From the NCBI GenBank assembly GCA_004431415.1, contig QPMI01000695.1, forward strand, positions 1-64,000: a stretch of DNA of 64,000 nucleotides. Reading direction: 5' to 3'. Positions 26,195-63,305 of the stretch are shown in pieces. A program made the translations under genes and the position numbers. Numbering within the stretch: the stretch's first letter is position 1; each line of letters opens with the position of its first letter. This DNA comes from Cyanophora paradoxa CCMP329. Lineage: Eukaryota > Plantae > Glaucophyta. The notes beneath the pieces were generated by a model. The model was given only the letters and a program-made list of their open reading frames with translations, did no database searches and was not told the DNA's origin.

Positions 26195-26646
26195 TATCCC
26201 GGGACTTTTGTGCCACCGAGTCAATGACTCGAAAAATGACTCGAACCCGAGTCATTGACTCGAAACCCGAGTCACTCCGGAAATGACTCGAAATCCGAGT
26301 CAGCCCGAGTCAGCCCGAGTCATTTCGAGTCACTCCGAGTCGGTGAAAATTTGTTCGAGTCAGCCCGAGTCAGCCCGGGTCAGCCCGAGTCACTCCGAGT
26401 CACTCGAATTCGAATATTTATTAACTATAAAATTAAATATATATATTTATAAATCGAGAGCCCCGCATGCGCACGCCCTGGCAGTGCTGGCACTGCGGCA
26501 TGCGCACGGCCGCCGAGCTAGCGCTGGGCAGCCTGGGCTCGACCACGCCGCCATACGTATACACCGGCGCCACGTTACATATATATCATAGTATAATTAA
26601 AGACGTTGCGCATGCCGCGATGCGCGCGCCCCGGGCCCCGCCCTGG
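26195..26646. mobile_element. Left arm of a foldback/TIR element: TIR plus a subterminal array of GAGTCA/TGACTC motifs
   Basis: Starts TATCCCGGGACTTTTG, which resembles the TACCCCGGCACTTTTG end of the 39764-48299 element. Followed by more than a dozen GAGTCA/TGACTC motifs. The other end is not identified in the window. Confidence 0.6.
26380..26646. repeat. 267-bp direct repeat, left copy
   Basis: Identical by eye to 63306-63572. Confidence 0.95.
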
Positions 26647-27518
26647 AGAGACTCTACGGGCACTCCGTGCTAGCCAGCTGTCAACAACAGCTGTGCCAGC
26701 CGAGGCCGTAGGAGTGCGGCGCGTCTACGCGGTGGTGCAGCAGCAGCGGTTCATCCGGCCAGCTAGCGACTACGGGGGAGGGACAACAGCCTCAGATCGT
26801 GAGGTGCGCACCGGCGCAAGCCGCCCGGGCACGTCGCCCGTGGTCGGTCCGGTGCGCAACGGGCAACTTGTCTCTTGGACCATCGCCGGCCCAGCGAAGC
26901 CAGCGGACGAGCGATCAGTGCTCAGAGGACACTGCGCGAGCAGTGGGAGCCCGCGAATTGCGCACCGCATCGCGGCCGCGATCATCGGATCTTCGTAAGC
27001 TCCAGGCAGCTACGGTCGAAAGAGGCTTGCGGGGGCGTTTCGGCAACCCCGTAGGTCCGCCTTTCATCGTAGTAAAGAGACGTCGTCAGGGGTCGTTTCG
27101 GCTGCCCCGCGCGTACGCTCTCGAGCCTTCCGGCGACCCAGCGTCAGCAGGCGGTCGCCAGCCCAACTCGCCACCAGACGAGCGCGCGCGTGCGGGGACG
27201 CCACCCACGGGTCGTACGCAGTGTTCGGTGGACGTGGGTGCACGCGGAGCTCGGCGGACGGAGTAACGGCGGCAACTTGCGGAGGCCCGCTCACGACCTC
27301 GACCAAGCCCGCCACGACGCCCGCTTCAGCGCCGCGCATCCCTCGGCCTTTCGAAGGGGGAGACTCTGCCAAAATTTTTGGCTCAGCTCGTCGCCGGCTC
27401 GCCAGCGATCAGCCGACAGTCGCCCCGTACCAGCCCGCGGACAGCTTCCAGCACCGCGAGCTACAGCCTCGCCCCTGACCGTCCCTTCTTTCTCCCCTTC
27501 AACTACTACCTCTCTACG

Positions 27519-30500
27519 ATGCACTCGAGCTCCGGATCCGGGCGGCTCGGGCGGCCGCCACCGGTGACGACGGCGGGCATGTCCCACATCGCGGCCATCA
27601 CCAACCGGAAGGCGGCGGAGCAGCAGACCTACAACCAGCGGATGCAGTACACGGAGCCGCCGGTGCCGGTCACGCTCGCCAAGGGCGCCGTCGTCATGAG
27701 CTTCGGCACCCCGCTGACGATGTCGAACGTCAAGCAAACGCTCGACCAGTTCACGAAGGTGGCGCACACCAAGAACTACTTCGCAGACATCCCCACCACG
27801 CCGGAAGAACGCCGCATGGTCAACTACACTCTCACGGAGTTCTCCCAGCTACTCTCGGCCCGGGACAAGGCCGACTTCCTTCAGCACCTGCACCGCCAAG
27901 AGCAGCACGACGCGGCGCTGGCCAAACTGGCGGCGGACGTCGCCGCGCAGGAGCGGGCATTGGCAGGCATCCCGTTGGCGGACGTCCTCCGGCGGACGCA
28001 GGAGCAGAACCGACTCGACGAGCTGCAGCGGACACTGCAGGCAGCGCAGCGGCGGGCCCCACAACCACCGTTGCGTCACGTCGGCGACCTCGCCCGCTGG
28101 CTCCACGCTCGCATCGACCCCGTCGACAAGGCTCGCATCATCGGCTTCACGCGCGAGATGTACATGGGCCTGCGGCCCAGCCACCAATTCGAGGCTACGG
28201 TGGAGGCGATCGAGCTCAGCGGCAGGACCCCGACCCCAGCAGTCGTCCTGGCGGCGCTGGAGGAGCAGATCCTTCTCCGCCAGCAACAGCACGTCGACGC
28301 CTGGGAGATGTTCGGCACCGAGGCCCATCACCGGCGCAAGAACTTCGCGACAATGGTCGACAAAGTGATGCCCCAGCTTTGGGAGCTCCGTCGGCAGCTC
28401 GAGACCGACATGCCGGGCAACACCGAGCTCCAGACTTCCTCCTTCCTCGCGTCCGCCCCGGCGATCTTCCTGCAGCCGCCGATCCACAGCAACAGCTGGG
28501 ACATCAACCTGGGGGAGGAGGACGCGAAGTCGTCCACGGCGCACGCGATCCGGATGGCGGCAGCGGCATCGGCTGAGGAGGGCGCAGCGTCCAACACTGA
28601 GGAGATGTCGGCACTCTTCGGAGCCAGCGGAGGCGACTCGTTCGACACGACACCGACCAAGCGGCCTCGCCACGAGCTCAGCGGCTCTCCGACGATTGAC
28701 CGGCAGCTTTCGACGGCGAGCCCGGCGACACGGTTGGCGTCGGACGTCGCAGCGGCATCGTTTACGCTCGGGACCGACCGTGAGCTCCGTCGCCTCTCCG
28801 ATCAGCAGGCGGCGCTGCAGCAGCAGCTGTTGCAGCAGCAGCAGCAACAGGCGCAGCAGTTCCTGACCCTCCAGCAGCAGCAGCAGCAGCAGCAGGCGGC
28901 GACGCACGCGCACATCATGGCGGTGCAGGCGACGCAGCTCACCACGGCACAGCAGATCGGCTCAGCCTTCAACGCGGCACCGTACGCCCCGCGGCCCCAG
29001 GGCCCGACCGCCCCCAGCGGCGCGACGCCGCCCCCGTTCCAGCCCCCGCTCGGCGGCGCGCGGGACGGAGCGCGGGCGCAGCCGCAGGGCAAGGTTTGCG
29101 GCCTCCTCTGCCACCGTGGATCTCGGCGGGGCCAAGTCTGCGGCGTGAACCACGCCAAGCAGAACGCGGTCTGGCGCTCGGCGATCCAGCTCCACGATCT
29201 GGCGCACCCGGGGCGCACGGTGAACGCGACGGCGGCGGGAATCCTGCAGCGGAACCCGGTGCCGGAGTGCCCGGGTGAGGACTGCCGGCGGTGCTACACT
29301 ATCTTCCCCCAGCTGTACGACACGCGGGACCTCCCGCCCCACCGGCACGACGAGAGCGAGGAGTGCCCGGTGCTGCGAGCCCTGCGGAACATGGCGCCCC
29401 TGCCCCACCTTCCGCAGCTGCCAGTCGGCTGGCGCGAACACCTGATCCAGGCGGGCGTCATCCAGGAGTCGCGGATCCCGACGGCGCAGCCCCCGCGCTT
29501 CCAGCCCCAGCCCATGCTCCCGGCGCCGGTGCCGGCAGCAGCGAACCCGTGGACGGCCAACTCCTACCCCCCCGCAGCGTACCCGGCCGGCTACGGCGTG
29601 CAGTACCCCCCGCTCGGCCAGGCGCCGGCGTCGGCACCGACCCCGCCGCCGCCCGCGAAGCCCCCTCAGACCTGCCACATCTGCAAGCAACCCGGCCACT
29701 TCGCTCACGAGTGCCAGCAGTCGAGGCAGCAGGCGGCGCCGGCGGGCCGCGGAGGCGGCCGCCGGGAGAACTTCCGCTCGGTCCCGCCCCCGCAGCAGTA
29801 CCACCCCCAGCAGCCGGCACAGGTGAACTACGCGGCGACGGGAGCCAACGCGTCCCCCGTGGCACCGGCGGGCTACATCCCGGTGGCACCGGCTGCACCG
29901 GCAGCGGCACCCGTGGACGCCAACTCGCCGCAGTTCTTCGCGGAGGTCATGGCGATCATGCAGCAGAAGCTCGCAGTGCGGGCGGCGCAGACGAACGCGG
30001 TGGCGGTCAGCAACGCCGATCTCGACGCTATGGTGGAGGCTGAGATGGACGCCTTGCTGGCGGCACGGGCGGCGCAGACGCGACCGGCCAACCGCCCGGA
30101 CTCCTACTCCCTGGACGCCCTCCGCTTCGGCGACGAGGCACGCGGCTACCGCGCGGGCGCGCCGGAAGACGCAGGGCGCACGGAGTGGAGGTCGGGCGCT
30201 ACGACCCCGTCGACGACGTGGGCCACCCCGGCGGGCTCGGAGCACGGCAGCGCCTCGGTGACGACATCCCCGCAGCCGGCAGCGACGGCCCCTAGCATCA
30301 CCGCGACGGCGGGGGTGGACTCGGGCGCACCGCCAGCCGAGCGACGGCAGCGGTCGGCTCTCCTGGCGCTTATCACCGAGGGCGCGCGTGCACGGCTGGC
30401 GGACATGGCACTGGAGCGGGAGACGGTGATGACCATGCCGGAGGAGGAGCGCGAGGCGCACCAGCAGCTCCGTGAGGAGGACGACGATCCGGGGGAGGCG

Positions 30501-33500
30501 GCGACGGACTCGGAGACGGACAGCCTCGACGGCGAGCCCCTCCGTCTCCGCGGCGGCGGCTACTCCGACGGGGACGCTGACGCTGACACCGACGCCGACG
30601 AGATGGTGCTCGACGGCGGTGGGAACGCTGACTCTGACGGCGAGGAGCTCGACGGCGAGCCTCTGCGCCTTCGCGGCGGCGGCTATCCCGACGGGGACGA
30701 GGACGGCGACACGTACTCTGACGTGGAGGAGTTCGGAGCCGACGGCGGGCTGACGGAACCAGAGTACGCCGGGGCGACGGAGGGCCTCGGCATCGGCGAC
30801 AGCTTGGGAGGGCCGGCAGCTCCACTGAGGCTCCGCGGAGGAGGCGGCGCGACGCGGAGGGTGCCCGACGGCGGCGCGGAGGCCTTCAACTCGGACGATG
30901 TGCAGGATGTTCTTGACCCGGTTCCCCCCCTGGTACAGCTGGGGCCGATGGGCTCACCGGCCCCACTACCGGAGCCGGTCGCGACGCTGGAACCGGCGGA
31001 ACTGGATCTCCTCGGCGTCGTGGTCAGTCCGACGATCCTTGCGAACCAGACGGAGCCGGCAGCGGCCGCGGAGCCGGAGGACACCCCGGAGTCCCGGTGC
31101 AGCACCGACGACGACTACACTCATTGGCCGGAGGGTTACAACTACGACAGCGACGGCAGCGTCAAGTACCCGACCAACGCGCTGGACATCGAGCTGGCCG
31201 ACGCCCGCGAGGAAGCGGAGAGCCGGGGAATCACGGTCAGCCAACTCTTGGACGAGAGGATGGCGGAGCTGGAGGCGTCCCACCGCTACGGTGCCGCGGT
31301 CGCAGTGTCGACGAACATCGCGGTCGTGGAGACGCCGCCGGCCTTCGTCGCCTACATCGACGACCTCATCGCGCGCAAAACGGCGGGGCCGTACACGTCG
31401 ATGGCGAGCGCAAGGCGCACAGTGGATGCGGGGCGAACACCGGACGCGGAGGAGGAGCTGCGGACAACAGACCAACCAGGGCTGTTGCTCGCACGACGGG
31501 CGATCGCTGCGATGGCGGCGAACCGGGGCGTCGACTACGCGACGATGCAGATGGAGCTGCGCGGCCGCGGAAACGCCATGCGGGAGGCGCTCCGGGCGCA
31601 AGTCAGCGCAGACCTTCAGCGGCTGTGGGACTCGGGGGTGCGGAATCCTTACGGCGAGGACGCAACAACACCGGGAACTAGCTCGATGGATGTGACACCT
31701 GACCACAGGACGGTGAGGGGGGCCGACGTGGAGCACCCGACAGCCGAGGACGACCCCGGCGGGTCGACGGCGGCGATGGTCGCCGCCGCTATTGCTGAAC
31801 GGATCGCAAACCGCGACTGCGTCGCAAGCCTCATGCCCACGGCATCCGGCTCGAGGACGACGCGGGCGGCACCGACGGCGGCCCGTCGGACTCCTCTCGG
31901 GGCGAGCAGCAGCTTCGCACGACGGGCAATCATGGCACGGTTCAGATCCCGCGACGTCAGCTTTGCGGAGGTGCAGCAGGAGGTGCGGGAGAACCCGACG
32001 CTCCGGGCAGCAATCGTGGCCTACATCCATGCGGCCATCACGGACCCCGACGAACTCTGGATCGTCGCTCAGGACGCGTTCGAGTGGCGCGTCGCGGAGA
32101 CGGCGGCAGACCGCAACAGCGACCGTCGATCCGTGATGCAGACTATTCGCGACGACCCTGCGGCTCGGGAGGTGATGGTGGCGTCCATTACTCAAGACCT
32201 TGCGCAGTGGCGGCGGGAGGCCGAGACAGCAGCGATGGAGGCCACGATGGAGAGCTGCACCACTATGCCGATGCATTACCTCTCCTGCGACCTCTCACTG
32301 GCCTATTTCACGCCCAACGCGGCAGAACAGCAGCTTCAGATGATCCCCCCCGACTCTCAGGACCATCAGCCTACAATGACGCCGATGTTCCCCGAACGTG
32401 AACACCGCTGGGAGGCGTTCGACCGAGCAGTCGCCGACCTCCAAGAGATCCGACGGGCGAGGCCCCTCGACGCGCACTGCGACGGCACGACCGACCTGAC
32501 GGCGGCCCTGTCCAACATAGATCTGGTCGGCCCGGAAGGGGTCCGGCAAGCGGATCTGGGCTCGGGTGCGGACCTGACGATCTCCACGGACACGGTGACG
32601 CCAGCACAGCCCACCCCGGCGGCGCGGCGCCGCCGGCGCCAGCGCAGGCGCGCAGCGCGGGGCGGACGATGCAAGCCAGACGGCGCTCGGGCATCGCCCC
32701 CTGAGGACGACGGCGACGATCCAGACGAGGCGCACGCAGCGGGCGGGAACGGGACTGAACGGACCTCTCGCACGGCAACGCAAGCGTGGAGCGCGACGGC
32801 GAGCTCGACGACCACGACGGTGACGCGGCCGACGAACCAGACTCAAGGCCCGAGAGCAACGATCGCCAAGTCGCAAGGGCGGCCCTGGCTGTACGGACTG
32901 ACGGTCACGGACGGCAAGGCGACGGTGGGCCTGCGCCAGCTGTCAGGATACTCGAACCTCTCGACGGCGACGACGGGCGTACTGCGCCTGCGGGGCGGGA
33001 CACGCCGGCGACAGAAGCCGGCGGAGGAGGCGCCAGCTACGACTCTGACGGCGGAGACCGCGGCGACGGCGACGCCGATGACGGGCGGAGTCCCGAGTGT
33101 GATGTTCACGGCGCCGACGGCGCCGGCTGCGACTCTGACGGCGGAGGCCGCGGCGACGGCGACACCGATGGCGGGCGGAGGCCCGGGTGTGATGTTCACG
33201 GCGCCGACAGCGCCGGCTACGACTCTGACGGCGGAGGCCGCGGCGACAGCGACGCCGATGACGGGCGGAGTCCCGGGTGTGATGTTCACGGCGCCGACAG
33301 CGCCGGCTACGACTCTGACGGCGGAGGCCGCGGCGACGGCGACGCCGATGGCGGGCGGAGGCCCGGGTGTGATGTTCACGGCGCCGACGGCGCCAGCTAC
33401 GACTCTGACGGCGGAGGACGCGGCGGTGGCGACGCCGATGACGGGCGGAGGCCCGGATGTGACGTTCACGGCGCCCCCGGCGCCGGCTACGACTCTGACG

Positions 33501-36500
33501 GCGGAGGCCGCGGCGACGGCAATGCCGATGGCGGGCGGAGGCCCGGATGTGAGGTTCACGGCGCCCACGGCGCCGGCTACGACTCCGACGGCGGAGGACG
33601 CGGCGATGGCGATGCTGATGGCGGGCGGAGGACCGAATGTGACGGTGGACGCCGCACTGATGGCGACCCTGACGGCGGACGCCGCACTGACGGTGACGGC
33701 GATGCCGGACGGACACTACATGGTGCGGCCCACGAACAGGCCGACAGCACCAGCAACGTACGTGACGCGCTCGGCGCTGGCGACGATCATGGAGACGGTG
33801 CCCATGATGACGGCGGCAATGGAGACTTCGGCGACACTGACGGCGGGCGTCGGCCCGGGCACGGAGACTCTCATCGGGAGCCGGCCGGCCCCGGGGGCGA
33901 TGACAGACGCGGGCGCTGAGGAGCCGACGGCAACGGTCACGGGCGAGCACTCGCGCACGACGCCGGTCGAGCGGTCGGCGCCGGAGACGGCAGCGACGCT
34001 GGCGACGGGTGTGGGCTTACCGACGGGCGTCGGCCCGAGGCCCACACGGGAACAGCGGGACACGATGGAGCAACTGACGGGAGACGACCACGAGGAGGCG
34101 AGGCCGGAATCACCGGAGCGCATGGAGCCGATGGAGTTCGACGACGCTGCAGCACTGCACAACGCTCAGACAGGCAATGCGGGCTACGGGATCAATGTTG
34201 TCGACGTGCATGACTGGCATCCTCCGCCACCTGCGCGACGGCACGATGGGTCTGGGGACATACCGACGCCTCAGACTCAGATCATCGCGCTGGCACAGAT
34301 GGCGGCGGACGCGGAGCAGGTGCCGCAGAACGCGCCTCGGCGGCGGCACATCACGGAGACCATTGTCAGAGCCATGTCGCAGAGGTATGACAGCAACCTC
34401 ACGCTCCAAGTGGCCATGACCGTCGACGACGTCGACCTTGTGGGCCACCTGCTGGCGACGAACACGAGCACGCTCTTGGAACCGGGGGCAACGATGCTCG
34501 AGGCGGGGAGCGTCGCGATGTGGGGCAACACCTCCGACGTTGCACGCTGGCTCTTGCTGCGACGCGACGCGGCGCGGCTGGGAGTCGACGTCGGGCAGGT
34601 GGCTCTACAGCAGTACTCAGAGCGGAAGGCGGTCCTGGATTCACTAATCAGCACGGGCGAGTTCGTACGGTACCGGCCAACCGATGAACCGGACCGGAAC
34701 GCGCCGAGTGACGACGGCGGACTGGCCGCAGTCGACGCTATCCAGGACATCATCGATCGCAACATGCAGAAGGGGGTGAGCCCGGCGAACACGTTGCAGC
34801 AGCGGGCGGAGCAGCAGATCGCGCGGGACCGGCATGTCGCGTTCGGCTTGGACCTCGCTCAGCACTTGAGGGCGATGTGGCGGCCGGAGGAGATGGTGCA
34901 GGCGAACGACCCGACGGGCCCAGTTGGCGAACCACCACCACCTCGATTCGGGCTCCAATCATCGCTCTCGCTCGACGACGCCCAGCAGGGCACGCAGGAG
35001 GGGGCGTGGAGGCGGCAGGCGATGCTGCGGATCGCGTACCTGACGCGAACGACGGCGGGATGGGAGGAGATGACGGATGTAGACCGCTTTGACGGCTTGA
35101 AGGAGGAGGCAATCAAGCGGAGCTTGACAGAAGCACAGACTGCGGAGGCGCTGATGAACGACTGGCGTGAGCTGCTGAACCTTACCGTCCACATGGGATA
35201 CCTACGGCAGGAACTCATCGACGGTTGGGAACAGTGGATTTCACCAAACAACCAGTACGTTTACCTGCGGAACATGATCCAACGGCTCGACGGGAAGCGA
35301 GCGCGGGACCCGACGGCAACGTGGTACACGCTGTTCCGGGACCTAGCGGCGAAGGCGCTGGGGCTCCTGCCTGAGGGGAAGCCGACGTTCTCGCAAGCCC
35401 GAGCTACACCGTCCCAACGGGCTCACACGGAGGTGGTGACGAAGCTGCAGAGGACGACGCTCAGGGGCGCTCAGCAAGACGAGTACTCCCTGCCGCACCC
35501 GGCGGCGTGGAAATACACGTCGCGGCTGCTCATGCACCCTGAATGTCTACGCACGTCGTTAGGACCGTTCACCTCAGCTCCGCTGGCACGCTCGGAGATG
35601 TATGACGACATCAACGACCCGTACAAGATGCGCCAGGAGTTCCCGCGACGCTCGTACGCTACATTCCTCCAACGCCAGTCTCCGAACGCGTGGGATGCAA
35701 TGTCGAAGCGGATGGTATCATACGCGTGGCGGCCCCGCGACGACCGGGCGGAGGAACTCCACATCTACTCGCCGGTTGAGGTGCAGGCGGCGAAGCTACA
35801 GCAGAACATGCCCCACTTCCGACGTGCATGGGAACTGTTGGTGATGCTCGGTTTCTACGGGTACAAGGACCCGTTCTACGACCACGGCCTGTACGACGAC
35901 ACGGCGGAGCCACATATCTACCAGGAGTCTCAGGCAGCGGCTGCATCAGCACGGGAGCTTCCGTGCCTCGGCCAGGACAGCGTTCTGGCACTGTTCGACG
36001 TCGACCCGCTGGATTACGCCTTCTTCACACAGGCCGAGTACTGCCTCATCCCCGCCCTGATCGTCACGGCGATTGAGCTGGGGCGGCACCTGGCGCACGC
36101 GTTCGCCACGCGAGGATGGAGGGCACCGATCACGGTCGACACGCAACTCGTGGAGCAGGCATGCGCGGCAAAGACGATGGAGGAGGCGAACCGCTACCTC
36201 ATTCTGGCAGCGCGTAGCATCGAGACGCCGCCGGCCGTGGAGACCTGCCCGGACTTGCCGGGCGCCTTGCTCATGCGATGCCGGGCCCAGGCTTGCGCAC
36301 TGACGCACGTCATGGCGTTGGGACATACGGGCTACGACTTCACTCGCGACCTGTTGGACGGTGGATACCAGCCACAGTGGCTTCAGAGCTTCTTTAGCTT
36401 TGGCGAGATCCTGGACCTGAACCTCCCCAGTGCCTACACCATGACCTACGCGGTCAAGCTCGGCGAACAGTTCCTGAACATGGTCGCGAGGGGCAGAGTC

Positions 36501-36746
36501 ATCAACGGTGACTACGTGCGGGGGCTGGAGGTGCCCCGCACTGCCGACCCGGAGGATCTGACGCTGTTCACGGAGACGGCCATCGGCTCACCACCACTCC
36601 GCTGGAATGAAGCGTTCACTCAGTACCTGGAGCAGACCGACAGCATGCAGAACTTCATCGAGATGGTCGCGAGTCTCCTCTACGACACCTCCATGGCCAT
36701 CGATCTTCCCCTCCCCATCGTCGACGACGACATGATGCAGGCGTAA
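27519..36746 (+). CDS. gag: Gag-like polyprotein, N-terminal part (over 3,000 aa)
   Basis: Zinc knuckle CHICKQPGHFAHEC near 29670-29715, an upstream Cys/His cluster, Gln/Pro-rich tracts and four LRLRGG motifs. First ATG at 27519. No capsid fold recognised by eye. Confidence 0.75.
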   Translation: MHSSSGSGRLGRPPPVTTAGMSHIAAITNRKAAEQQTYNQRMQYTEPPVPVTLAKGAVVMSFGTPLTMSNVKQTLDQFTKVAHTKNYFADIPTTPEERRMVNYTLTEFSQLLSARDKADFLQHLHRQEQHDAALAKLAADVAAQERALAGIPLADVLRRTQEQNRLDELQRTLQAAQRRAPQPPLRHVGDLARWLHARIDPVDKARIIGFTREMYMGLRPSHQFEATVEAIELSGRTPTPAVVLAALEEQILLRQQQHVDAWEMFGTEAHHRRKNFATMVDKVMPQLWELRRQLETDMPGNTELQTSSFLASAPAIFLQPPIHSNSWDINLGEEDAKSSTAHAIRMAAAASAEEGAASNTEEMSALFGASGGDSFDTTPTKRPRHELSGSPTIDRQLSTASPATRLASDVAAASFTLGTDRELRRLSDQQAALQQQLLQQQQQQAQQFLTLQQQQQQQQAATHAHIMAVQATQLTTAQQIGSAFNAAPYAPRPQGPTAPSGATPPPFQPPLGGARDGARAQPQGKVCGLLCHRGSRRGQVCGVNHAKQNAVWRSAIQLHDLAHPGRTVNATAAGILQRNPVPECPGEDCRRCYTIFPQLYDTRDLPPHRHDESEECPVLRALRNMAPLPHLPQLPVGWREHLIQAGVIQESRIPTAQPPRFQPQPMLPAPVPAAANPWTANSYPPAAYPAGYGVQYPPLGQAPASAPTPPPPAKPPQTCHICKQPGHFAHECQQSRQQAAPAGRGGGRRENFRSVPPPQQYHPQQPAQVNYAATGANASPVAPAGYIPVAPAAPAAAPVDANSPQFFAEVMAIMQQKLAVRAAQTNAVAVSNADLDAMVEAEMDALLAARAAQTRPANRPDSYSLDALRFGDEARGYRAGAPEDAGRTEWRSGATTPSTTWATPAGSEHGSASVTTSPQPAATAPSITATAGVDSGAPPAERRQRSALLALITEGARARLADMALERETVMTMPEEEREAHQQLREEDDDPGEAATDSETDSLDGEPLRLRGGGYSDGDADADTDADEMVLDGGGNADSDGEELDGEPLRLRGGGYPDGDEDGDTYSDVEEFGADGGLTEPEYAGATEGLGIGDSLGGPAAPLRLRGGGGATRRVPDGGAEAFNSDDVQDVLDPVPPLVQLGPMGSPAPLPEPVATLEPAELDLLGVVVSPTILANQTEPAAAAEPEDTPESRCSTDDDYTHWPEGYNYDSDGSVKYPTNALDIELADAREEAESRGITVSQLLDERMAELEASHRYGAAVAVSTNIAVVETPPAFVAYIDDLIARKTAGPYTSMASARRTVDAGRTPDAEEELRTTDQPGLLLARRAIAAMAANRGVDYATMQMELRGRGNAMREALRAQVSADLQRLWDSGVRNPYGEDATTPGTSSMDVTPDHRTVRGADVEHPTAEDDPGGSTAAMVAAAIAERIANRDCVASLMPTASGSRTTRAAPTAARRTPLGASSSFARRAIMARFRSRDVSFAEVQQEVRENPTLRAAIVAYIHAAITDPDELWIVAQDAFEWRVAETAADRNSDRRSVMQTIRDDPAAREVMVASITQDLAQWRREAETAAMEATMESCTTMPMHYLSCDLSLAYFTPNAAEQQLQMIPPDSQDHQPTMTPMFPEREHRWEAFDRAVADLQEIRRARPLDAHCDGTTDLTAALSNIDLVGPEGVRQADLGSGADLTISTDTVTPAQPTPAARRRRRQRRRAARGGRCKPDGARASPPEDDGDDPDEAHAAGGNGTERTSRTATQAWSATASSTTTTVTRPTNQTQGPRATIAKSQGRPWLYGLTVTDGKATVGLRQLSGYSNLSTATTGVLRLRGGTRRRQKPAEEAPATTLTAETAATATPMTGGVPSVMFTAPTAPAATLTAEAAATATPMAGGGPGVMFTAPTAPATTLTAEAAATATPMTGGVPGVMFTAPTAPATTLTAEAAATATPMAGGGPGVMFTAPTAPATTLTAEDAAVATPMTGGGPDVTFTAPPAPATTLTAEAAATAMPMAGGGPDVRFTAPTAPATTPTAEDAAMAMLMAGGGPNVTVDAALMATLTADAALTVTAMPDGHYMVRPTNRPTAPATYVTRSALATIMETVPMMTAAMETSATLTAGVGPGTETLIGSRPAPGAMTDAGAEEPTATVTGEHSRTTPVERSAPETAATLATGVGLPTGVGPRPTREQRDTMEQLTGDDHEEARPESPERMEPMEFDDAAALHNAQTGNAGYGINVVDVHDWHPPPPARRHDGSGDIPTPQTQIIALAQMAADAEQVPQNAPRRRHITETIVRAMSQRYDSNLTLQVAMTVDDVDLVGHLLATNTSTLLEPGATMLEAGSVAMWGNTSDVARWLLLRRDAARLGVDVGQVALQQYSERKAVLDSLISTGEFVRYRPTDEPDRNAPSDDGGLAAVDAIQDIIDRNMQKGVSPANTLQQRAEQQIARDRHVAFGLDLAQHLRAMWRPEEMVQANDPTGPVGEPPPPRFGLQSSLSLDDAQQGTQEGAWRRQAMLRIAYLTRTTAGWEEMTDVDRFDGLKEEAIKRSLTEAQTAEALMNDWRELLNLTVHMGYLRQELIDGWEQWISPNNQYVYLRNMIQRLDGKRARDPTATWYTLFRDLAAKALGLLPEGKPTFSQARATPSQRAHTEVVTKLQRTTLRGAQQDEYSLPHPAAWKYTSRLLMHPECLRTSLGPFTSAPLARSEMYDDINDPYKMRQEFPRRSYATFLQRQSPNAWDAMSKRMVSYAWRPRDDRAEELHIYSPVEVQAAKLQQNMPHFRRAWELLVMLGFYGYKDPFYDHGLYDDTAEPHIYQESQAAAASARELPCLGQDSVLALFDVDPLDYAFFTQAEYCLIPALIVTAIELGRHLAHAFATRGWRAPITVDTQLVEQACAAKTMEEANRYLILAARSIETPPAVETCPDLPGALLMRCRAQACALTHVMALGHTGYDFTRDLLDGGYQPQWLQSFFSFGEILDLNLPSAYTMTYAVKLGEQFLNMVARGRVINGDYVRGLEVPRTADPEDLTLFTETAIGSPPLRWNEAFTQYLEQTDSMQNFIEMVASLLYDTSMAIDLPLPIVDDDMMQA
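33030..33650 (+). repeat. Coding 90-bp (30-aa) tandem repeat, about 6-7 copies
   Basis: Units of the form APATTLTAEAAATATPMxGGxPGVMFTAPT. Confidence 0.93.
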
Positions 36747-37035
36747 GGAGCTGTTTCGCATGTCGCAGACGGCCCCGGACGGACCTCGACGGGCCGAAAA
36801 CGGCGCGACCTTTCGGACATCCCGCTAGTTCGCGAGCTTTAACAATGGATGGAATTTGAATTTCGAACACGGCGGCTATCAGCCGGCTGAGTTCGAGTTC
36901 GAGCTGGCTAGACCAATTTCTATATCCCCCCAAGCCATCTCCCCCCCCCTACCAAGCCACGGCCAGCTGCAGCTAGATTGCCAGACTTGCGCGGGAAAAG
37001 CAAAAGCGCTTATAGCTTAGCGTTCGGCGATCGAG

Positions 37036-40000
37036 ATGCCGCTCTCTGTGCTGTCTGCCAAGGTCGGCTCAGCGTTCGGTTCCATTAGAGCGTGGCTGGG
37101 CGGCGCCAGCGATGGCAGGCCGCGGCACGGCCAGATTGGCGGCAGCACCTGCGGCAGCCAGGACGACCTCGGCGAGGACGTGAATCCAGACGACTTTGGC
37201 GACGCAGCTTTGAGCGAGCAAGTCGTTCAGCCTGCGCATGCAGCGCCAGCTGCGCATGCGACGGCCGCGGTCGCGCTGGCGCCTCCCGCGGCGGAGCCGG
37301 CGGGCGGGAGCGACTCCCCACAAGTCTCGCCAGTACGCTCAGAGCTCGAGCAGAGCCCCGGCAGCGGCTGCTGTGAGACGCCAGGGACGCCTTTGGGTGG
37401 GGGTACGCCTGTACAGCCGTGTACGCCGCCAGTCGCAGCTGCCTCATCAGCGACCCCCGTGTACACGCCTGATCGCCCGCGTCGCAAGCGGGTAGTGGAG
37501 GCGCTGGAGGCGGAGGCACGCCGCCTCGTGAGCATCATCGGGCCACACGCAGTGCGCGTTATTATATATATATATATACATAAAAAGAGCTACCGAGAAT
37601 CGTACTTTATAGGCTACAAAATCGTTGGAGAAGAGCACCTTTCTGAACCACCGTCCGCAGGCCCAACGAGCCCTGGAAACGAGCAAATCGGGTCAGCTGC
37701 AAGTGAAGAAGGCGATGAGCATCGCCTGCAGGAAGCTGCGGGACACCTTCCCCGACTGCGAGATTCTAGAGTGGAAGGACCGCCACTGCATCTCGGACGT
37801 GCGCCCTTTCTCGAATGTTTTAACCCCCCATCCCGTTCTAAACCGACCCCGGGCAGGCGACGTACTTTGAGTTCACGAAGCTCCTGAAGAAGGCCCTGAA
37901 GAAGCACTTCGTGGGGCTGCGAGCCTTCCTCCCGTCGAAGCACTGCATCACGAAGCTACGGGGCAAGGTCAACGATGACCTCGAGAAGGCGCGGCGCGCG
38001 CGCGGGGCGGGGGTGAGGGACGAGGCTCACCGAGCGGTGCAGATCGTGCAGATCGTCGAAACAGCGGCGGGCGTCGGCGACGAGGAGAACAAGGGCAAGC
38101 CGGGCGTCATGCTCGAGCTCTTTGTGCCTCCGTCGAGCGCAGCGCCGGCGGCGGGCGGAGAGGCGGCAGCGCCGGCGGCGGGCGGAGAGGCGGCAGCGCC
38201 GGCGGCGGGCGGAGAGGCGGCAGCGCCGCCGCCCCGCAGAGCTGTCACGCCGACGCCCGCCCTGTCGGCCCTCATCAGCGCTTTCGTCCCGCTGCACAAG
38301 CACAGGGGGAAGAAGATCAGACCTCGAGTCCGCCTGGCGGGCGACGGGACGATCGCGTTCCGCGGGAAGAGCGTCTCCACGACCGACGGCATGACCTGCA
38401 TCGTGGCAATCGTCGACGGCTACTACGTCATCGAGGAGGACGGGACGCAGGCGTACCACGCGCTGAAGGGCGTTCAGAGCAGCTACGCCATCCTGCCCCT
38501 AATGCTCTTCGGCGGTAGCGACAGCGAGGAGAACCTGCGCCCACGCATCAAGCCCCTCGCCGACATGGTCGAGTACCTGAACGAGAACCCGCTCACCCTG
38601 ATCCCCGGGTACGAGCACGACAAGCCCGTCGAGGTCGAATTCTTGGTGACGGGCGACTACAAGTTCCTGCGCGTCCTCCTCGGCTTCGACCTGTGCCCGC
38701 ACTGCGATTCTGTCCACCGACGCGGGTCAGTTCGCCGAGTCACACGCGCTGAGATTCGGCATGGGGCTCACGTTGCTGCAGGTCCGAGTGCTCGGCGGTC
38801 GAAGTCGTGCGCGCAGCAGGGCCGCGGGATCGGGACGGCCTCCCTCCAGCCAGCGAACAGAGAATCCGCACCCCCGAGCACGACGCCAACGCCCTCCTGC
38901 AGCCGCTCCCGAACAGCATGCTGCCCGTCGCTGCCGTCGAGGTGAGAAGCCCGCGACACCTCGCCTCAGCAGACGCCAACGCGCACCTCAGGTCCGGCTC
39001 GACGACGCCCTGCACGGCATCAAGAGCTGGGTGGCCGGGTTCTTCGTCTACTTCTTCCTCGCCCTCGCCTGTGGTGCCTCCGAGGACCAGCAGAAGCGCA
39101 TCGAAGACCTGCAGCGTCATCTTCGCGATAAATACGCGCGGAACATCAAGTTCGAGAAGACCGAGAACGGGGCCACGTACAAGTTCTTCCAGAAGATCTC
39201 CGCCAACACCGCCAAGAAGATCCTGGAGGACCCCGAGGCGCCCGACACCCTCTTCAGCATCTGCTTCGGCGACAGTAAGGAGAGCTGGAGCGAGAAGACG
39301 AGGGGCATGCACGAGATTTGGCAGCTCCGCCAGATAATCTACCAGTACGAGCGGAACATGAAGCCCGACGAGGAGGCGCGGCAGCAAGTTATCGAGGCCG
39401 TCGCCGAGCTCCAGGGCCTGATGGAGACACACTTCCCGTTATGGAAGATCTTCACACGCTACATGCACTCGACGCTTGCGCACCTCGCGTTCTGGGCGCG
39501 CGTCGACAACACGAACGCGCCCGGCCGTTGGAGCTGCGAGGTCATCGAGTCCTACATGGGCCTCCTTCGGCGCCTGCGACACACCGTCACGTCTCTCGGT
39601 GGCGGGTGGAACAAGGACCTCGACATGCTCAAGCAGATCATGACGCACCAGCGGCGGCGCCTGGCGCTGTGGATGCGGAACATGACGGAGGCGAGCGTCG
39701 GCGGGAAGGACGCTGCCCACGCCGAGTACGACGCGCCCGTCGCCGCCAAGGCCTGGCCAGATGTACCCCGGCACTTTTGGCTCACCCACGCATTGCGTCG
39801 AAATTTGAGTCATTTTTCGACGCAGTGCTCCGAAATTTCACGCAATGCTTGAAAATGCGTCGGGGTTTCAAGCAGCGCTTGAAACCCCACGCAGTGCGAC
39901 GCAGCTGCCCGAAACTTCGAAGCACCGCGACTGCGCCAAATTCCCACTGCGTCTGGCTGCGTCGAGCGATGCAGCCTGGCAGCGCTAGCAGGCGTATCCT

Positions 40001-43000
40001 ATAGCTAGTACTAGTAGCTCGTAACCCATGCGGATTGCGGATTCAATGATTAATATTGCAGCGCGCGCGCTCGGGATCCACTGGGGCAGATCCGAGTGCG
40101 CGGGCGGATTGCAGCGCGCGCGCGGCTGTACCAGTACCGCAGTACTAGTATATCCGTACGTGCATGCTTAGTTTGCTCGCGCTTCTGGGCCGCTGGGCCG
40201 CGGCCGGGCCACAGCGGCGACAGGCCCGTGGCCAGCTATTGTGAATCTGTGGCATGCGCTGTTCATAAAAAGATGATGAACTGGAAGTATACAGGCTGTC
40301 CGGGATCCGAAATCTATCCCACGCACCAGCCCCTGAAGCCCGAATCCGAGCGCTAGCTAGTTGCCGAGAAAACGAAAACTAACTGCAATCAGCTGCCGAA
40401 CAGCGGGTAGTGCTGCTGTCCTGCCTGCAGCATCGTCCGCCGGCGGCACAGGCAGAATGCGCCCTCGCCGCACTCGCTGCGGCAAGTCACCGCGCTCGCT
40501 GCGCTCAGAATAAGCGGACTCCTAGCTTAAAGAGAGAAGTGGGAAGCAAGGGGACGTCTGCGCACCGAGGAGAGGGTAGCAGTCCCGCTTCCTCCGCATC
40601 CAGCATCCCTTGCCCGTGCCCGACTCCGTTTGACCTGTTTGAAATTGTGGAGTAAGGGAGACCAGGATGCGCTGCGGTGGAGAGCCCAGCGCCGACGCAC
40701 CGAGATTGCATTGCGTCCCGTGCTGGAGGCCGCAGCCAGTTCTTGCCCTGCGTGCTCTTCAAAGTGCAAGGCCGGAATTCGGGGTACACAGCTGTTGGGC
40801 GAAAGCGGCAGCGACACCAACAGCGATATCGATCGAGGATGCTTGAGGACGCCCTTCGGCTCAGCTTTCCGAGGAAGCCTGAGCGGTCCCATGCTCCTTC
40901 GCAGCTCGCTCGGCCGCGGTGCCGAGCACGTTGGCGGAAGCTCGCAGATGCGGCGCGCGGCCCTTTCGTTAGCTATAGCTAGGCGCATGTGGCCCGTGTT
41001 CTCGCAGCTGCATGTCTATGCCCTGGCGTGGCCGTGTTTCCGTGCGGCGCCGCGTTCACGGCCTGCCTTCCTCCCACAAACCGACGACGTGCGTCTATGC
41101 CGTGCCCTCCGCGTTCCACGCGTGACGTACAGCTCACTCGATTTCGCAGGGATCGCCGGCGGTGAGCCCCGTCGGCCCAGTTGGTTGGCCCTGCGCCCAA
41201 GCCGAGCCAAGGTGCGGCTACCGCCTGGACGGGGTGCGGGATCAGACGGGCTGCATCCCGTTTCTCGCTGTTGATCTCTCCTTCGTAGCGGGCGATGGCG
41301 TGCCGGCAAGCTGCTGGGCGGCGATCGCGCCCTGCCGAGCGCGTCGCCATCGCCGGGGGTGGGCCACCGGACTATAGCTTTGCGTCAGCGGCGCGCGAAC
41401 GCATGTCTCACGATTCTTGCTTGCGTTCCAGGCGCTGGATCGCGCGCGCCGTCTCCAGGCTCCGAATTCTGGACCCCTCTTCCACAGCTTGGTGAGGCTC
41501 AGGCCTAGACGAGGTGAGTTGAGCGGTCTGTGTGCGTACGCGTCGCTGACAAGGCGCTCCTGTCGCGCAGGATGATCGAGTCCCGGGGCGATGGTCGGAG
41601 GGAGCGGAGGGCGGCAGCATGGATTGCACGGCGGGGCGTAGGATCGGCGGGCGGCGGCCCGGGCGCACGCCTCGCGCGCCGCCGGCTGCCCGCCCGCCCC
41701 GGCCCGCCCCGCGCCGTCGCTTCGCCCGCCCCGGCGCCTTCGCCCCGCTCCGCCCCGTCGCTTTCGCCCCGCCCCGCAGAGTCGGTGCGCCGTGCTGAGC
41801 GCCCTGCCCGGCACAGCCCGGCCTGCCTGCTGCTGACGCCCTCGCAGCTCTCGAGGATTTTGAATTTTCGGGGCGTCCCGCTGCCGCGGGAGAGGATCTT
41901 CGAGCGCCCCGCCGCCCCGCCGTCCTCAGGGGACAGCGCCGGGGGTCGCTGAAGCTCGCAGGGCGGGGCGGAGGCGCGGCGAGCGGAGGCGCGGCTCGCC
42001 GCACGGGGTGGAGGCGCGGCGGGCGGCGGCGCGGCTCACCTGGCGGGGCGGAGGCGCGGCGGGCGGCGGCACGGCTCGCCGGGAGGGGCGGCGGCGCGGC
42101 GGGCGGCGCGCAGCTCGCCGGGCGGGTGAGGGTGCGGCGGGCGGCGGCGAAGCTCGGCGGGCAGGGCGGAGGCGCGGCGGGCGGCGGCACGGCTCGCCGG
42201 GAGGGCGGCGGCGCGGCGGGCGGCGCGCAGCTCGCCGGGCGGGGCGAGGGTGCGGCGGGCGGCGGCGAAGCTCGGCGGGCGGGGCGCGGGAGCGGCGGGC
42301 GGCGGCGCGGCTCGCCAGGCGGGGCGGAGGCGCGGCGGGCGGCGCCGCGGCTCGCGGGGCGGGGCGGAGGCGCAGCGTGCTGCGGCCCGGCTCGCCGCAC
42401 GGGGTGGAGGCGCGGCTGGCGGCGGCGCGGCTCGCCAGGGGGGCGGAGGCGCAGCAGGCGGACAGGACGGCAGGCGCGGCGGGCGGCGGCGTGGCTCGCG
42501 GGGCGCCGCGGTGGCGCGACGCGGCTTCGATTCGTGATCACTGATCATGAGCGTGATGATCTCTTGTCATTCAATTTAAACAGATCCGAGGCTGCGCTGC
42601 CCTGCAACTTGGCACAAATGAAGTGTTGGCAATTGGGGCCCACTATTGCTTGGCGAGGCACCAGCACCTTTTCAGCGCTTGCCACTATTAAAATCAAATC
42701 TAGCGCCTTTGATATAGTCCAGGTACGCTTCTCCAGTCAGTGAAAAGGCCGGGATCTCAGAGTCTTTTCCTGGCTTCATGATCAATTCTCATGATCATCA
42801 TGAACACTGCATGCATGGGTGCTCAGATCCTCACTGCGAGCCAAATTGAAACTCGGGGCCCATATTGCATACGCCCGCGAGCATGCTGTTGGGGGTTCTC
42901 GAGGGCGCTGGATTTGATTATGAAGTTGGTTTAAGACAGATCCGAGGCTGCGGTGCCCTGCAACTTGGCACAAATGAAGTGTTGGCAATTGGGGCCCACT

Positions 43001-46000
43001 ATTGCTTGGCGAGGCACCAGCACCTTTTCAGCGCTTGCCACTATAAAAATCAAATCTAGCGCCTTTGATATAGCCTAGGTACGCTTCTCCAGTCAGTGAA
43101 AAGGCCGGGATCTTTTCCTGGCTTCATGATCAATTTTCATGATCATCATGAACACTGCATGCATGGGTGCTCAGATCCTCACTGCGAGCCAAATTGAAAC
43201 TCGGGGCCCATATTGCATACGCCCGCGAGCATGCTGTTGGGGGTTCTCGAGGCTGGATTTGATTATGAAGTCGGTTGAAGACAGATCCGAGGCTGCGCTG
43301 CCCTGCAACTTGGCACAAATGAAGTGTTGGCAATTGGGGTCCACTATTGCTTGGCGAGGCACCAGCACCTTTTCAGCGCTTGCCACTATTAAAATCAAAT
43401 CTAGCGCCTTTGATATAGTCCAGGTACGCTTCTCCAGTCAGTGAAAAGGCCGGGATCTTTTCCTGGCTTCATGATCAATTCTCATGATCATCATGAACAC
43501 TGCATGCATGGGTGCTCAGATTATCACTGCGAGCCAAATCGAAACTCGGGGCCCATATTGCATACGCCCGTGAGTATGCAGATGGGGGTTCTCGAGGGCG
43601 CTGGATTTGATTATGAAGTCGGTTTAAGACAGATCCGAGGCTGCGGTGCCCTGCAACTTGGCACAAATGAAGTGTTGGCAATTGGGGCCCACTATTGCTT
43701 GGCGAGGTACAAGCACCTTTTCAGCGCTTGCCACTATAAAAATCAAATCTAGCGCCTTTGATATAGCCTAGGTACGCTTCTCCAGTCAGTCAAAAGGTCG
43801 GGATCTTTGCAAAGCCTCATGATCAGTGATCATGATCATCATGAACACTGCATGCATGGGTGCTCAGATTATCACTGCGAGCCAAATCGAAACTCGGGGC
43901 CCATATTGCATACGCCCGTGAGTATGCAGATGGGGGTTCTCGAGGGCGCTGGATTTGATTATGAAGTCGGTTTAAGACAGATCCGAGGCTGCGGTGCCCT
44001 GCAACTTGGCACAAATGAAGTGTTGGCAATTGGGGCCCACTATTGCTTGGCGAGGTACAAGCACCTTTTCAGCGCTTGCCACTATAAAAATCAAATCTAG
44101 CGCCTTTGATATAGCCTAGGTACGCTTCTCCAGTCAGTCAAAAGGTCGGGATCTTTGCAAAGCCTCATGATCAGTGATCATGATCATCATGAACACTGCA
44201 TGCATCATGGGCATGGGTGCTCAGATTATCACTGCGAGCCAAATCGAAACTCGGGGCCCATATTGCATACGCCCGTGAGTATGCAGATGGGGGTTCTCGA
44301 GGGCGTTGGATTTGATTATGAAGTCGGTTTAAGACAGATCCGAGGCTGCGGTGCCCTGCAACTTGGCACAAATGAAGTGTTGGCAATTGGGGCCCACTAT
44401 TGCAAATTGCTTGGCGAGGTACAAGCATCTTTTCAGCGCTTGCCACTATCAAAATCAAATCTAGCGCCTTTGATATAGCCAAGGTACGCTTCTCCAGTCA
44501 GTCAAAAGGTCGGGATCTTTGCAAAGCCTCATGATCGTGATCAGTGATCATGATCATCATGAGCACTACACCGCCCGGCGACCCGCGCCACCGCCCGCCG
44601 CGCCTCCGCCCCGCCCCGCGAGCCGCGCCGCCACCCCTGAGCCCCCGCCCCGTCCGACGAGCCGCGTCGCCGCCCGACGCGTTTCCGCCCCGCCCCGCGA
44701 GCCGCGGCGCCGCCCGCCGCGCCTCCGCCCGCCCCGCGAGCCGCGGCGCCGCCCGCCGCGCCCGCGCCCCGCCCGGCGACCCGCGCCTCCGCCCGCCGCG
44801 CCTCCGACCTGCCCGGCGAGCCGCGCCTCCGCCCGCCGCGCCTCCGCCCCGCCCCGCGAGCCGCGGCGCCGCCCGCCGCGCCTCCGACCTGCCCGGCGAG
44901 CCGCGCCTCCGCCCGCCGCGCCTCCGCCCCGCCCCGCGAGCCGCGCCTCCGCCCGCCGCGCCTCCGCCCCGCCCGCGAGCCGCGCCTCCGCCCGCCGCGC
45001 CCCGCCCCGCCCGGCGAGCCGCGCCGCCCCCGACACGCCTCCGCCCTGCCCGGCGAGCCGCGCCTCCGCCCGCCGCGCCTCCGCCCGCCCCGCGAGCCGT
45101 GTCTCCGCCCGCCGCGCCGCCGCCCCGCCCTGCGAGCTGCGCCGCAACCCGCTGAGCCCCGCCCTGCCCGGCGAGCCGAGTCGCTGCCCGACGCGCCTCC
45201 GCCCCGTCCGGCGAGCCGCGTCGCCGCCCGCCGAGCCTCCGCCCCGCCCCGCGAGCCGTGTCTCCGCCCGCCGCGCCGCCGCCCCGCCCTGCGAGCTGCG
45301 CCGCAACCCGCTGAGCCCCCGCCCTGCCCGGCGAGCCGAGTCGCTGCCCGACGCGCCTCCGCCCCGTCCGGCGAGCCGCGTCGCCGCCCGCCGAGCCTCC
45401 GTCCCGCCCCGCGAGCTGCGCCGCCGCCCGCCGCGCCCCCGCCCGCCCAGTGAGCCGCGCCGCCACCCTGCCCGGAGAGCCGCGCTCGCCGCGTCTCCTA
45501 CCTGGCCGGAGGGAGCCGTGCCACCGCCCGCTGTCTCGCTGAACCCGCCAGGCAAGTTTAGCGGGGGGAGAGAGGGGGGGGGGAGGGAGACAGGACGGGC
45601 AGCTGGCGGCGCGCGAGGCGCGCGCCCCGGGCGGCGGGCGATCGGACCTACAGGACGTGGCGGCTGGTGCCAAGGAGGCGGTAGCTGCGGCGACGGGGAA
45701 GCCTCGGCAGCTGCGGCGGCGGGCTCGGCGACGTGCGAGGCGTGCGCCCCGGGCCGCCGCCCGCCGATCCTACGTCCCGCCGTGCGATCCCTGCTGCCGC
45801 CCTCCGCGCTACTGAACGCGAAGCTATGGTCTGGAAGCGCACCCGCGGCCATGGCGATGGCAGGGCGCGTTCGCCGCCAGCGGCGTGCCGGCACTCCATC
45901 GCCCGCTACGAAGGAGAGATCAACAGCGAGAAGCGTGCGGCAGTTCGCCTGTCCCCCCGTTCCCGGCCAGGCGGCCGCCGCACCTTGGCTCGGCTTGGGC

Positions 46001-48692: not shown

Positions 48693-48699
48693 CGCACCT

Positions 48700-50728: not shown

Positions 50729-50985
50729 GCACGGTGGCGTGCAGGAATGCTCGCGCTCGGGCGTGCGCGATGGCGGGAAGCTAGCTAGTCCGGCCTAGCC
50801 GAGGGAAGCTGACTAGCAAGCCGGCCTGCTGACCGTTACTGTGACCGTTGTGGCCGCGTGTGTACGCCACTGTGTACGAGGCCAAGTTCGAGCTCAAGTT
50901 TGCGCTGGGCTAATTTCATTGGCGGAAGAAGTTAACAATGGGCGGGGCGTGACGCAAACTCCGTTCAGTTTGAAACGAGGGCCGA

Positions 50986-56900: not shown

Positions 56901-57249
56901 TACGCTCGTCGTCACGACGGCGAACTCGATGGGGGACGTCAAGATGCTCCTGGGACTCTCGACGCTCATCGCGCTCCGGGCACAGATCAGCTGCGCCCCG
57001 GAGAAGTGGGGCATGCACGTCACATCGCCTGACGACCAAGAACTCCACTTCGTCCCTTTTCAGCCTCGGACCGAGAGGGAGGGACCCTTCCGGTCCGCTT
57101 ACTACGTCCCACCACCGTCCACCGCGGCGAAGCCATGGTACGCGGCTACGTGCCCGACATGCACGGCTTGCTCCCTGTGGACAAAGATGAAGTTCGCATC
57201 ACGGCGGCACCGGAGTACGATGGTGGCCCGCCGCCAGACTCGTCAGTGA
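50986..57249 (+). CDS. Continuation of the polyprotein: large unknown region plus aspartic protease
   Basis: ORFs at 50989, 51550 and 51886 are in one frame, separated only by TAG codons. Retropepsin motifs ILIDSGAEL and MLLGL. Confidence 0.82.
57054..57097 (+). promoter_or_regulatory. Candidate -1 programmed ribosomal frameshift signal
   Basis: In-phase C CCT TTT heptamer, 6-nt spacer and a hairpin CGGACCG..CGGTCCG. The -1 frame is open into RT. Confidence 0.65.
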
Positions 57250-62327: not shown

Positions 62328-62896
62328 AAACCCGGCGCGGCATCGTGCCCCGGACAACCTCTTTGTCGTTGTCAAAATGCCGCTGCTCTTCTCTTTTCGC
62401 CGGCGCATAAAGCTCTGCGCTGCGTTGCGATGCGAGCGCAACTGCTCACTTACTTGCGCCACGCGCGATCCAGATCCTCCACGGGATCCATTCTCCCCGG
62501 CTTCCCCTCGCCGCGCGACCAGCGGCGGGGTCCCATCTTCACGGCACCTTCTCGCCGCACGGAGGCGGCGGGAACTTCGCACACGGGGCGATGGGATTTT
62601 CGCTGTTGTTGGCGGCACGGCAGAGGTTTTTCGCCCGGTTTTCCTCTGGCCGTTAGTGACCCTCGGGGGCAGCATCTGGGCCCGGGCCCCTCACATTTTT
62701 GCCCCCGAGCGGCAGTCGGCGCGGTCTCTCACATGACCGGTTTCTGTTGTTCAGACTCAGGCAGAATTCCTGTACTGTGGTCTCGAGCCGATTGGACTTT
62801 AGTCTATATTAGTCTGTATCTTTATCTATGGATTTCTGACCGGCGGGCGCGTAGGCTAGATAGGCGTCCCGGTCCTTTACATTTATGCTCCTCATT

Positions 62897-63198: not shown

Positions 63199-63305
63199 AT
63201 TGCAGCAGTGATATACTGTCCAAGTCCCTGTAGCCCTGTACCCCTGTAGCTCAGTCTGCCTGTACCCCCAATACACCACCTTGCCAGCTATCTAGCCTGG
63301 CAATA

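Follow-up and report, generated by a model that had tools for sequence, protein, structure and literature searches.

Candidate ubiquitin-tail processing sites in the polyprotein of a giant Ty3/gypsy element from Cyanophora paradoxa

The window analysed here, a stretch of 64,000 nucleotides from Cyanophora paradoxa CCMP329 (contig QPMI01000695.1, positions 1 to 64,000 of the forward strand), contains a giant Ty3/gypsy element whose polyprotein carries the hexapeptide LRLRGG four times. LRLRGG is the tail of ubiquitin at its cutting site. The explanation that we favour, tentatively and at somewhat short of even odds, is that the element captured a ubiquitin, as pestiviruses have done, and that erosion of the captured sequence left bare tails at which a host protease cuts. 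A role for LRLRGG as a cut site is plausible from the sequence and from analogy, and would be confined to one family of elements. The pattern is best explained if the motif tails were kept by selection while the body eroded, and selection on a protease site in particular is suggested because the tail is retained on an eroded ubiquitin body and because tail-only repeats occur in acidic linkers behind the nucleocapsid.

Four LRLRGG motifs in one reading frame

The motifs lie on the + strand at 30540–30557, 30663–30680, 30825–30842 and 32982–32999 (motifs 1–4). A six-frame scan confirms the preliminary description in this respect: all four are in one + frame of a 3,159-codon stop-to-stop open reading frame (ORF; 27267–36746), at residues 1092, 1133, 1187 and 1906. 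The whole window holds five LRLRGG sequences, the fifth at 54775 on the − strand directly after a stop codon. The four in the ORF compare with expected counts of 0.0005 from composition and 0.0024 from a dipeptide model; local shuffles contained one LRLRGG in 10 of 20,000 cases and two or more in 0 of 20,000. With a 30-residue tandem repeat set aside, the only hexamers recurring at least three times in the ORF are LRLRGG and its overlaps. The motifs are real and non-random.

All of the sites fall in unstructured-looking linkers. Motifs 1–3 are each followed by Gly and lie within 101 residues of one another in an acidic linker just behind the Gag CCHC knuckle, while at motif 4 a Thr comes next and then a few basic residues. 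The sequence P-LRLRGG-G is common to motif 3 and motifs 1 and 2, although the flanks of motif 3 are unrelated to theirs, and no alignment could be made between the flanks of motifs 1, 3 and 4.

Selection at the protein level had been proposed because each motif uses different synonymous codons. Pairwise, the four 18-mers differ at 3–6 nucleotides and every difference is silent. Motifs 1 and 2 belong to a single acidic repeat unit that was duplicated locally (LDGEPLRLRGGGY, with.DGD after it), so at most three of the occurrences are independent. Between these two units a 13-codon core has five silent and no replacement changes, whereas the ungapped flanks have one silent and 11 replacement changes (Fisher p = 0.001 against the core, with a flank alignment that may be off).

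An eroded ubiquitin in front of motif 4

Residues 1837–1911 of the ORF (32775–32999, + strand), the last six of which are motif 4, make up an eroded ubiquitin. When the whole ORF was compared with PDB sequences, residues 1846–1923 matched ubiquitin-eS31 weakly (E about 0.5), and a search with the fragment aligned residues 1846–1911 to ubiquitin 10–76 with one gap. Single-domain E-values in the fragment search range from 0.01 to 0.7 with the tail included, and the huge summed E-values against polyubiquitin chains are not counted as evidence.

Support independent of the tail comes from a comparison of the 66 residues upstream of it with a set of 93 distinct natural ubiquitins taken from viral loci. 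Scored in this way, residues 1837–1902 have the top ubiquitin score among 3,093 windows of the ORF, one residue off the register that the tail sets. Of 20,000 shuffles, each allowed its best among seven registers, 2 did as well, as did 1 of 21,279 windows drawn as background from nine further retroelement proteins. The two halves of the body match independently (44 and 18 of 5,000 shuffles as good), and DNA identity to ubiquitin is 36.6% in register, compared with a mean of 25.7% and a maximum of 35.1% over 40 shifted registers. The tail of motif 4 keeps six of six residues and the body a median of 12 identities in 66 (about 18%); a complete tail at that rate of retention has a nominal chance of 4e-5, uncorrected for the site having been found by its tail. 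In our reading, motif 4 descends from ubiquitin, as the unaltered tail of a copy that the element captured.

The other three motifs have no ubiquitin body, their upstream ubiquitin scores being equalled by 2,042 (motif 1), 514 (motif 2) and 3,230 (motif 3) of 5,000 shuffles. Remnants in front of them were rejected after six half-window and three full-window tests, the best result of which was the 514 of 5,000. The link to ubiquitin is stronger than had been claimed where motif 4 is concerned, and does not extend to a body in motifs 1–3.

A basic run, TRRRQK (33000–33020), follows motif 4, and fusions of ubiquitin to eS31 are the top single-domain PDB matches. It may have been a ubiquitin-eS31 mRNA that was captured; the basic run is too short for a test.

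Repeat units in sister copies

Public contigs from four DNA runs of the same organism supply sister copies of the element. Over 319 bases one sister contig is 8.5% diverged, with 13 silent and 7 replacement codons in 30230–30488, and 16 of 26 listed changes fall on third codon positions. Because silent codons outnumber replacements and changes are in excess at third positions, the ORF is, by this comparison, truly coding and under purifying selection.

One sister copy has at least three further motif 1-type repeat units. The only listed change inside the motif among these units is silent (position 30548, in three contigs), in a comparison where changes near contig ends go unlisted. No sister contig of at least 80% likeness over most of 30640–33000 was found for the copy with the extra units. 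In another copy, all four motifs and the greater part of Gag are missing through an internal deletion (27825–36123), and the sister gene model P0005 has the same jump.

The crowding of the sites raises the question of whether cutting would serve maturation. They may instead be cut for turnover or as decoys, the Gly-Gly end being a degradation signal or the acidic LRLRGG-ended peptides occupying E1 or tail readers. We consider this unlikely. Three sites within 101 residues would free only acidic peptides of 41 and 54 residues, beyond the need of maturation, and the sister copy carries its additional units, but such clustering could be plain redundancy or replication slippage. In human cells, diGly-ended deubiquitinase products are removed via KLHDC2 (PMC8013793). 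Tail peptides on a non-ubiquitin frame are activated by E1 and not passed to E2, although a table in the same source gives the free VLRLRGG peptide as a very poor E1 substrate (PMC6136576). By the same data, conjugation of the new Gly-Gly ends, which the preliminary description had entertained, is unlikely. Quite unlikely, too, is a reading that combines both uses: captured ubiquitin, reduced to a fold-free six-residue tag in an expanding tandem array, would let host enzymes mature the 6,800-residue polyprotein and release acidic tail mimics that jam E1 or tail readers, countering ubiquitin-mediated particle clearance.

A processing model and its difficulties

In the favoured explanation, an ancestor of the element would have taken up host ubiquitin coding sequence in frame and thereby acquired a site that deubiquitinases cut, like the cytopathic pestiviruses. 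The body of this ubiquitin would then have decayed, with core Ile, Leu and Val mostly replaced by Thr and the last six residues kept, and tail-only sites would have appeared, newly or as copies, in the acidic linker that follows the nucleocapsid knuckle. The very long polyprotein would be split after GG by a host protease for which the tail is enough, by our inference a deubiquitinase that needs no fold, for example one of the ZUFSP family. The predicted products are (i) Gag residues 1–1013, counted from the Met at 27519; (ii and iii) the two acidic peptides already mentioned; (iv) a 719-residue module and (v) the remainder, with accessory region and Pol.

A number of observations weigh against this explanation, and they concern (i) the ubiquitin remnant, (ii) the distribution of the motif and (iii) the protease. 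As to the remnant, the contrast between tail and body is inflated because the motif 4 site was located through its tail, and a median of 12 identities in 66 is a weak match in absolute terms. Hydrophobic columns are kept at 5 of 19 positions, eight are now Thr and a Pro occupies one helix position. Single-sequence AlphaFold modelling of the remnant gives a hairpin only, with a predicted local distance difference test score (pLDDT) of 49.5, a model that alone is weak evidence. Pfam calls no ubiquitin in the region even at E ≤ 10, a PDB search of the remnant with the tail removed gives no match, and Foldseek with the model finds no fold match at E ≤ 0.001. Since only 5 of the 19 hydrophobic positions survive, the body before motif 4 has probably lost its fold. 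The earlier statement that the motifs lack a ubiquitin fold is therefore probably true physically, but it passed over motif 4 as the C-terminus of a recognisable, eroded ubiquitin.

With regard to distribution, one of the extra sister units probably has a replacement at the first Arg of the motif (30544, middle base), because two contigs begin at the same place and should differ there, a deduction from the structure of the contig graph. LRGG is absent from 17 of 17 same-species pol gene models (28,370 residues), from 37 of 37 further same-species models (45,736 residues), among them P0157, a 4,924-residue Gag-Pol model that runs from Gag knuckle to integrase, and from 103 of 103 other Ty3 proteins; no RLRGG occurs in ORFs of at least 200 residues from 80 of 80 metagenome loci. 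Most of these motif-free sequences cover pol, without a homologous accessory region, and gene models may skip parts. Because the accessory regions of the relatives are non-homologous and their models may be incomplete in this way, the absence shows, at the level of these sequences, a family-specific trait and not loss. Lack of conservation in related elements had been named as one of two observations that would count against the preliminary description; this one was seen, in that related giant families of the species lack the motif.

Much of this would also fit motifs that are leftovers without present function, from a captured ubiquitin in decay and a tail-bearing linker unit duplicated in tandem, for which we see only a small chance. 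Absence from related families, a body that has lost its core, the duplication behind motifs 1 and 2, the probable change of Arg in one sister unit and the internally deleted copy (joint 27825–36123) that lacks all four motifs are all consistent with it. That copy also lacks most of Gag, however, and so says little. Mere leftovers would not be expected to differ by silent changes only (3–6 nucleotides) while the flanks of motifs 1, 3 and 4 have become unalignable, nor to keep the whole tail of motif 4 at the retention rate of its body, with the nominal chance and the reservation given above.

The protease presents the third difficulty. An ordinary Ty3 element manages with its own aspartic protease, and the element has a protease of that kind. 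Most deubiquitinase classes need fully folded ubiquitin, with the ZUFSP family as an exception (PMC8776766), and judged from sequence and model no motif here has a folded ubiquitin. ZUFSP enzymes cut RLRGG-AMC faster than ubiquitin-AMC, but these data concern a fluorogenic peptide and not an internal peptide bond, and in the accessible text of the report the peptide activity has no clear role (PMC8776766). No protease other than the aspartic one was found by Pfam (whole ORFs and fragments), by PDB sequence searches or in two Atlas searches, which are weak negatives because the accessory regions have no homologues from which sensitive profiles could be built.

The fold requirement of most deubiquitinases and the missing fold would be no obstacle if the motifs were not cut at all, and selection would then be explained without a special protease. 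The motifs would act as internal binding or modification sites, either as bait for the ubiquitin pathway or as Arg-Gly-Gly boxes for RNA binding or Arg methylation. We regard this as improbable. ZnF-UBP domains and similar readers of the ubiquitin tail want a free C-terminus, and a role as Arg-Gly-Gly boxes would leave both the fixed Leu-Arg-Leu and the ubiquitin ancestry unexplained.

Alternatively, the element itself might encode an unrecognised cysteine protease that cuts LRLRGG, much as coronavirus papain-like proteases cut LxGG. A dedicated enzyme of this kind would account for tail-only sites confined to one family, and for about 4,500 accessory residues homologues come from the species alone. 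Deubiquitinases encoded by transposons are known, and RLRGG-AMC is cut by one VTD domain of a Helitron (PMC9741609). The earlier statement that the element contains no OTU or Ulp protease motif nevertheless held in the Pfam, PDB and Atlas searches, weak as these blanks are, and the AlphaFold model of the C-terminal 780 residues of the ORF (2380–3159), although unusable (pLDDT 37.4), is mostly helical. We judge an element-encoded protease to be quite unlikely.

Overall, the preliminary interpretation is partly supported. Should host cutting at the tails occur as in the favoured explanation, the element would show, in nature and at an intermediate stage, how a processing signal based on ubiquitin can dwindle to six C-terminal residues, with one site still bearing an eroded ubiquitin body and three without one. 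Deubiquitinases that do not depend on the fold, such as those of the ZUFSP family, would then have natural substrates in these sites, and a giant LTR (long terminal repeat) retrotransposon would be able to leave some of the processing of its polyprotein to the ubiquitin system of its host.

The giant element and its surroundings

The assignment to Ty3/gypsy rests on domain order and on relatives. Protease, reverse transcriptase, RNase H and integrase follow one another from 56713 to 61410 in the Ty3/gypsy order, and the best relatives of the reverse transcriptase are Ty3-type proteins. All four domains are on the + strand: the aspartic protease at 56713–56967 (Pfam gag-asp_proteas, E = 0.0008), the reverse transcriptase at 58245–58724 (RVT_1, E = 1.8e-32), in a frame that differs from those of protease and RNase H, the RNase H at 59008–59334 (RT_RNaseH, E = 4.6e-26) and the integrase at 60934–61410 (Integrase_H2C2, E = 6.7e-15; rve, E = 2.5e-06), whose reading frame stops at 62145.

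The 5′ part of the polyprotein ORF, comprising Gag and an accessory region, extends from the first Met at 27519 to 36741 (+ strand). Its CCHC zinc knuckle, the mark of the nucleocapsid, lies at 29670–29720 (+ strand, residues 802–818) and narrowly misses the Pfam zf-CCHC cut-off of 20.8 (18.8 bits, E = 0.0017); a capsid fold was not identified. The knuckle, together with the gene model P0005, which joins the start and end of the ORF to the protease-bearing part, places Gag upstream of pol in the same element. Seven copies of a 90-bp (30-residue) Ala/Thr/Pro-rich tandem repeat (32929–33738, + strand) are placed just after motif 4.

A natural end of the ORF at 36746 was considered and rejected. 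A nested 14.2-kb insertion of high-copy DNA (36742–50977, no strand assigned) carries the TAA that ends the ORF, so the stop belongs to the insertion. Contig depth is about 1,800–2,300 from about 36742, compared with 130–150 within the ORF; a sister contig departs from the window at 36741, AGG flanks both sides of the insertion, and P0005 passes from the last residues of the ORF directly into the part that resumes at 50978. This continuation, accessory region plus aspartic protease, occupies 50978–57249 (+ strand) and has in-frame TAG codons at 51526 and 51775. The original Gag-Pol was probably continuous, at about 6,800 codons by arithmetic with the nested insertion left out. The copy has decayed, as seen from the insertion, the two TAG stops and two frame breaks in pol. 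An alternative genetic code with TAG as a sense codon was rejected, the sister model having Lys and Tyr at the two positions.

The element is bounded by a 267-bp exact direct repeat (26380–26646 and 63306–63572, both + strand) that begins TC and ends GG. Its copies are 100% identical although the interior has decayed. The repeat is without TG...CA ends, no purine tract precedes its right copy, and a flanking array of 10-bp repeats (26227–26411) leads into its left copy. Either a long target duplication or an LTR of unusual kind may account for it.

Homologue searches with the ORF found same-species proteins only, its N-terminal ~400 residues matching such proteins at 71% and 32–37% identity, and the close relatives of the element are all gene models labelled Cyanophora paradoxa. 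The species appears to have several very large Ty3/gypsy families (P0137, P0139, P0147, P0149, P0157, P0158 and P0163), whose reverse transcriptases are 51–88% identical to that of the element and whose proteases are preceded by 1,000–3,000 accessory residues of unrelated sequence. A viral-contig scan with the element's reverse transcriptase gave 18 pattern matches, none of which was confirmed. For the second accessory region, Atlas gave no usable match. Weak ankyrin-like Atlas features (0.91–0.93, below the recognition threshold) at 34404–36743, which encode the C-terminal 780 residues of the ORF, are a lead only. Between protease and reverse transcriptase, at 57200–57420, the sequence VHICNPS...GTIVGYAE resembles the C-terminal part of a dUTPase-like domain, and has no Pfam match. 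The 3′ untranslated part of the element (62850–63200) has four copies of a roughly 25-bp motif with CTCGTGAAATAGTAACAT.

The nested insertion has almost no terminal inverted repeat. Near 37842–39760 it contains a transposase-like gene, with a GDYKF...CPHC stretch that we take to be RAG1/Transib-like, without Pfam support. The gene is itself interrupted by an element at 39763–48300 that has terminal inverted repeats and CAGAT on both sides. In the region 40437–47544, long inverted repeats (40622–41395 and 45805–46575) lie on either side of a 40-bp satellite, present in both orientations, and of a tandem repeat of roughly 348 bp in five to six copies (42551–44567). Elsewhere in the window, two interstitial TTAGGG telomere-type arrays (5575–5680 and 5780–5840) lie at the edge of a stretch of 46% GC (1–6000); the rest of the window has 60–78% GC.

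Comparison with known systems

The closest parallel to the proposed processing is found in pestiviruses. In bovine viral diarrhoea virus (BVDV), host hydrolases cut ubiquitin inserts in the polyprotein, and the strains Osloss, CP1 and CP Rit resemble the Cyanophora element in having a host ubiquitin captured in frame with a Gly-Gly candidate processing site (PMC8310069). The BVDV ubiquitin is nearly whole and its cleavage has been shown (PMC8310069), whereas in the Cyanophora element the body has ~18% identity, three sites are bodiless and the cut sites are predicted. FAU, SDE2, TUG and USP1 autocleavage offer a second parallel, with internal di-glycine sites that are cut by deubiquitinases and leave diGly C-ends; FAU, SDE2 and TUG keep a ubiquitin-like domain and USP1 cuts itself, and in the part of the source available none of them comes from a transposon or shows tail-only sites in repeated form (PMC8013793). 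Motif 4 has the ubiquitin-derived, in-frame and Gly-Gly-ended sequence of the pestivirus type and lacks the folded beta-grasp domain. The arrangement works like a pestivirus insert or a FAU/SDE2-type precursor and is not a member of either class, because the folded-domain feature fails.

Helitron OTU/VTD transposons also engage with the host ubiquitin system, but what they encode is the deubiquitinase itself (PMC9741609). The Cyanophora element has the substrate motif, and searches of it turned up no enzyme of this kind. Non-canonical fusions in Guillardia theta and Bigelowiella natans likewise have ubiquitin internal to longer algal proteins; these are host genes with recognisable ubiquitin, and 'transpos', 'RGG' and 'Cyanophora' do not occur in the accessible text (PMC6332867). 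Among titles and the starts of abstracts, with subscription papers, Repbase reports and supplements outside this coverage, we found neither ubiquitin tails in a retrotransposon polyprotein nor, among titles and abstract starts, a paper on these giant Ty3/gypsy elements of Cyanophora. No paper that combines LRLRGG and retrotransposon was found, and PMC9940879, in its available part, does not cover the topic.

In architecture, the element is most like Burro and GYPSM1 of planarians, which are Ty3/gypsy elements of more than 20 kb with a huge single polyprotein (4,873–5,140 residues in Burro) and captured domains between Gag and protease (PMC6431247). The giant Burro polyprotein even holds a Ubi2/SUMO-like domain, although section 7, on Burro, mentions neither tail motifs nor ubiquitin-type processing (PMC6431247). 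The present element differs in a host from a different kingdom and in the lack of any MATH, BIR, BCL2 or env Pfam match; ankyrin likewise has no Pfam match, only the sub-threshold Atlas signal noted above. Set beside polyproteins of ~5,000 residues or more, it has about 6,800 codons and a related family has the 4,924-residue model. The giant elements of Cyanophora point to a glaucophyte clade of very large Ty3/gypsy elements that has apparently not been described before.

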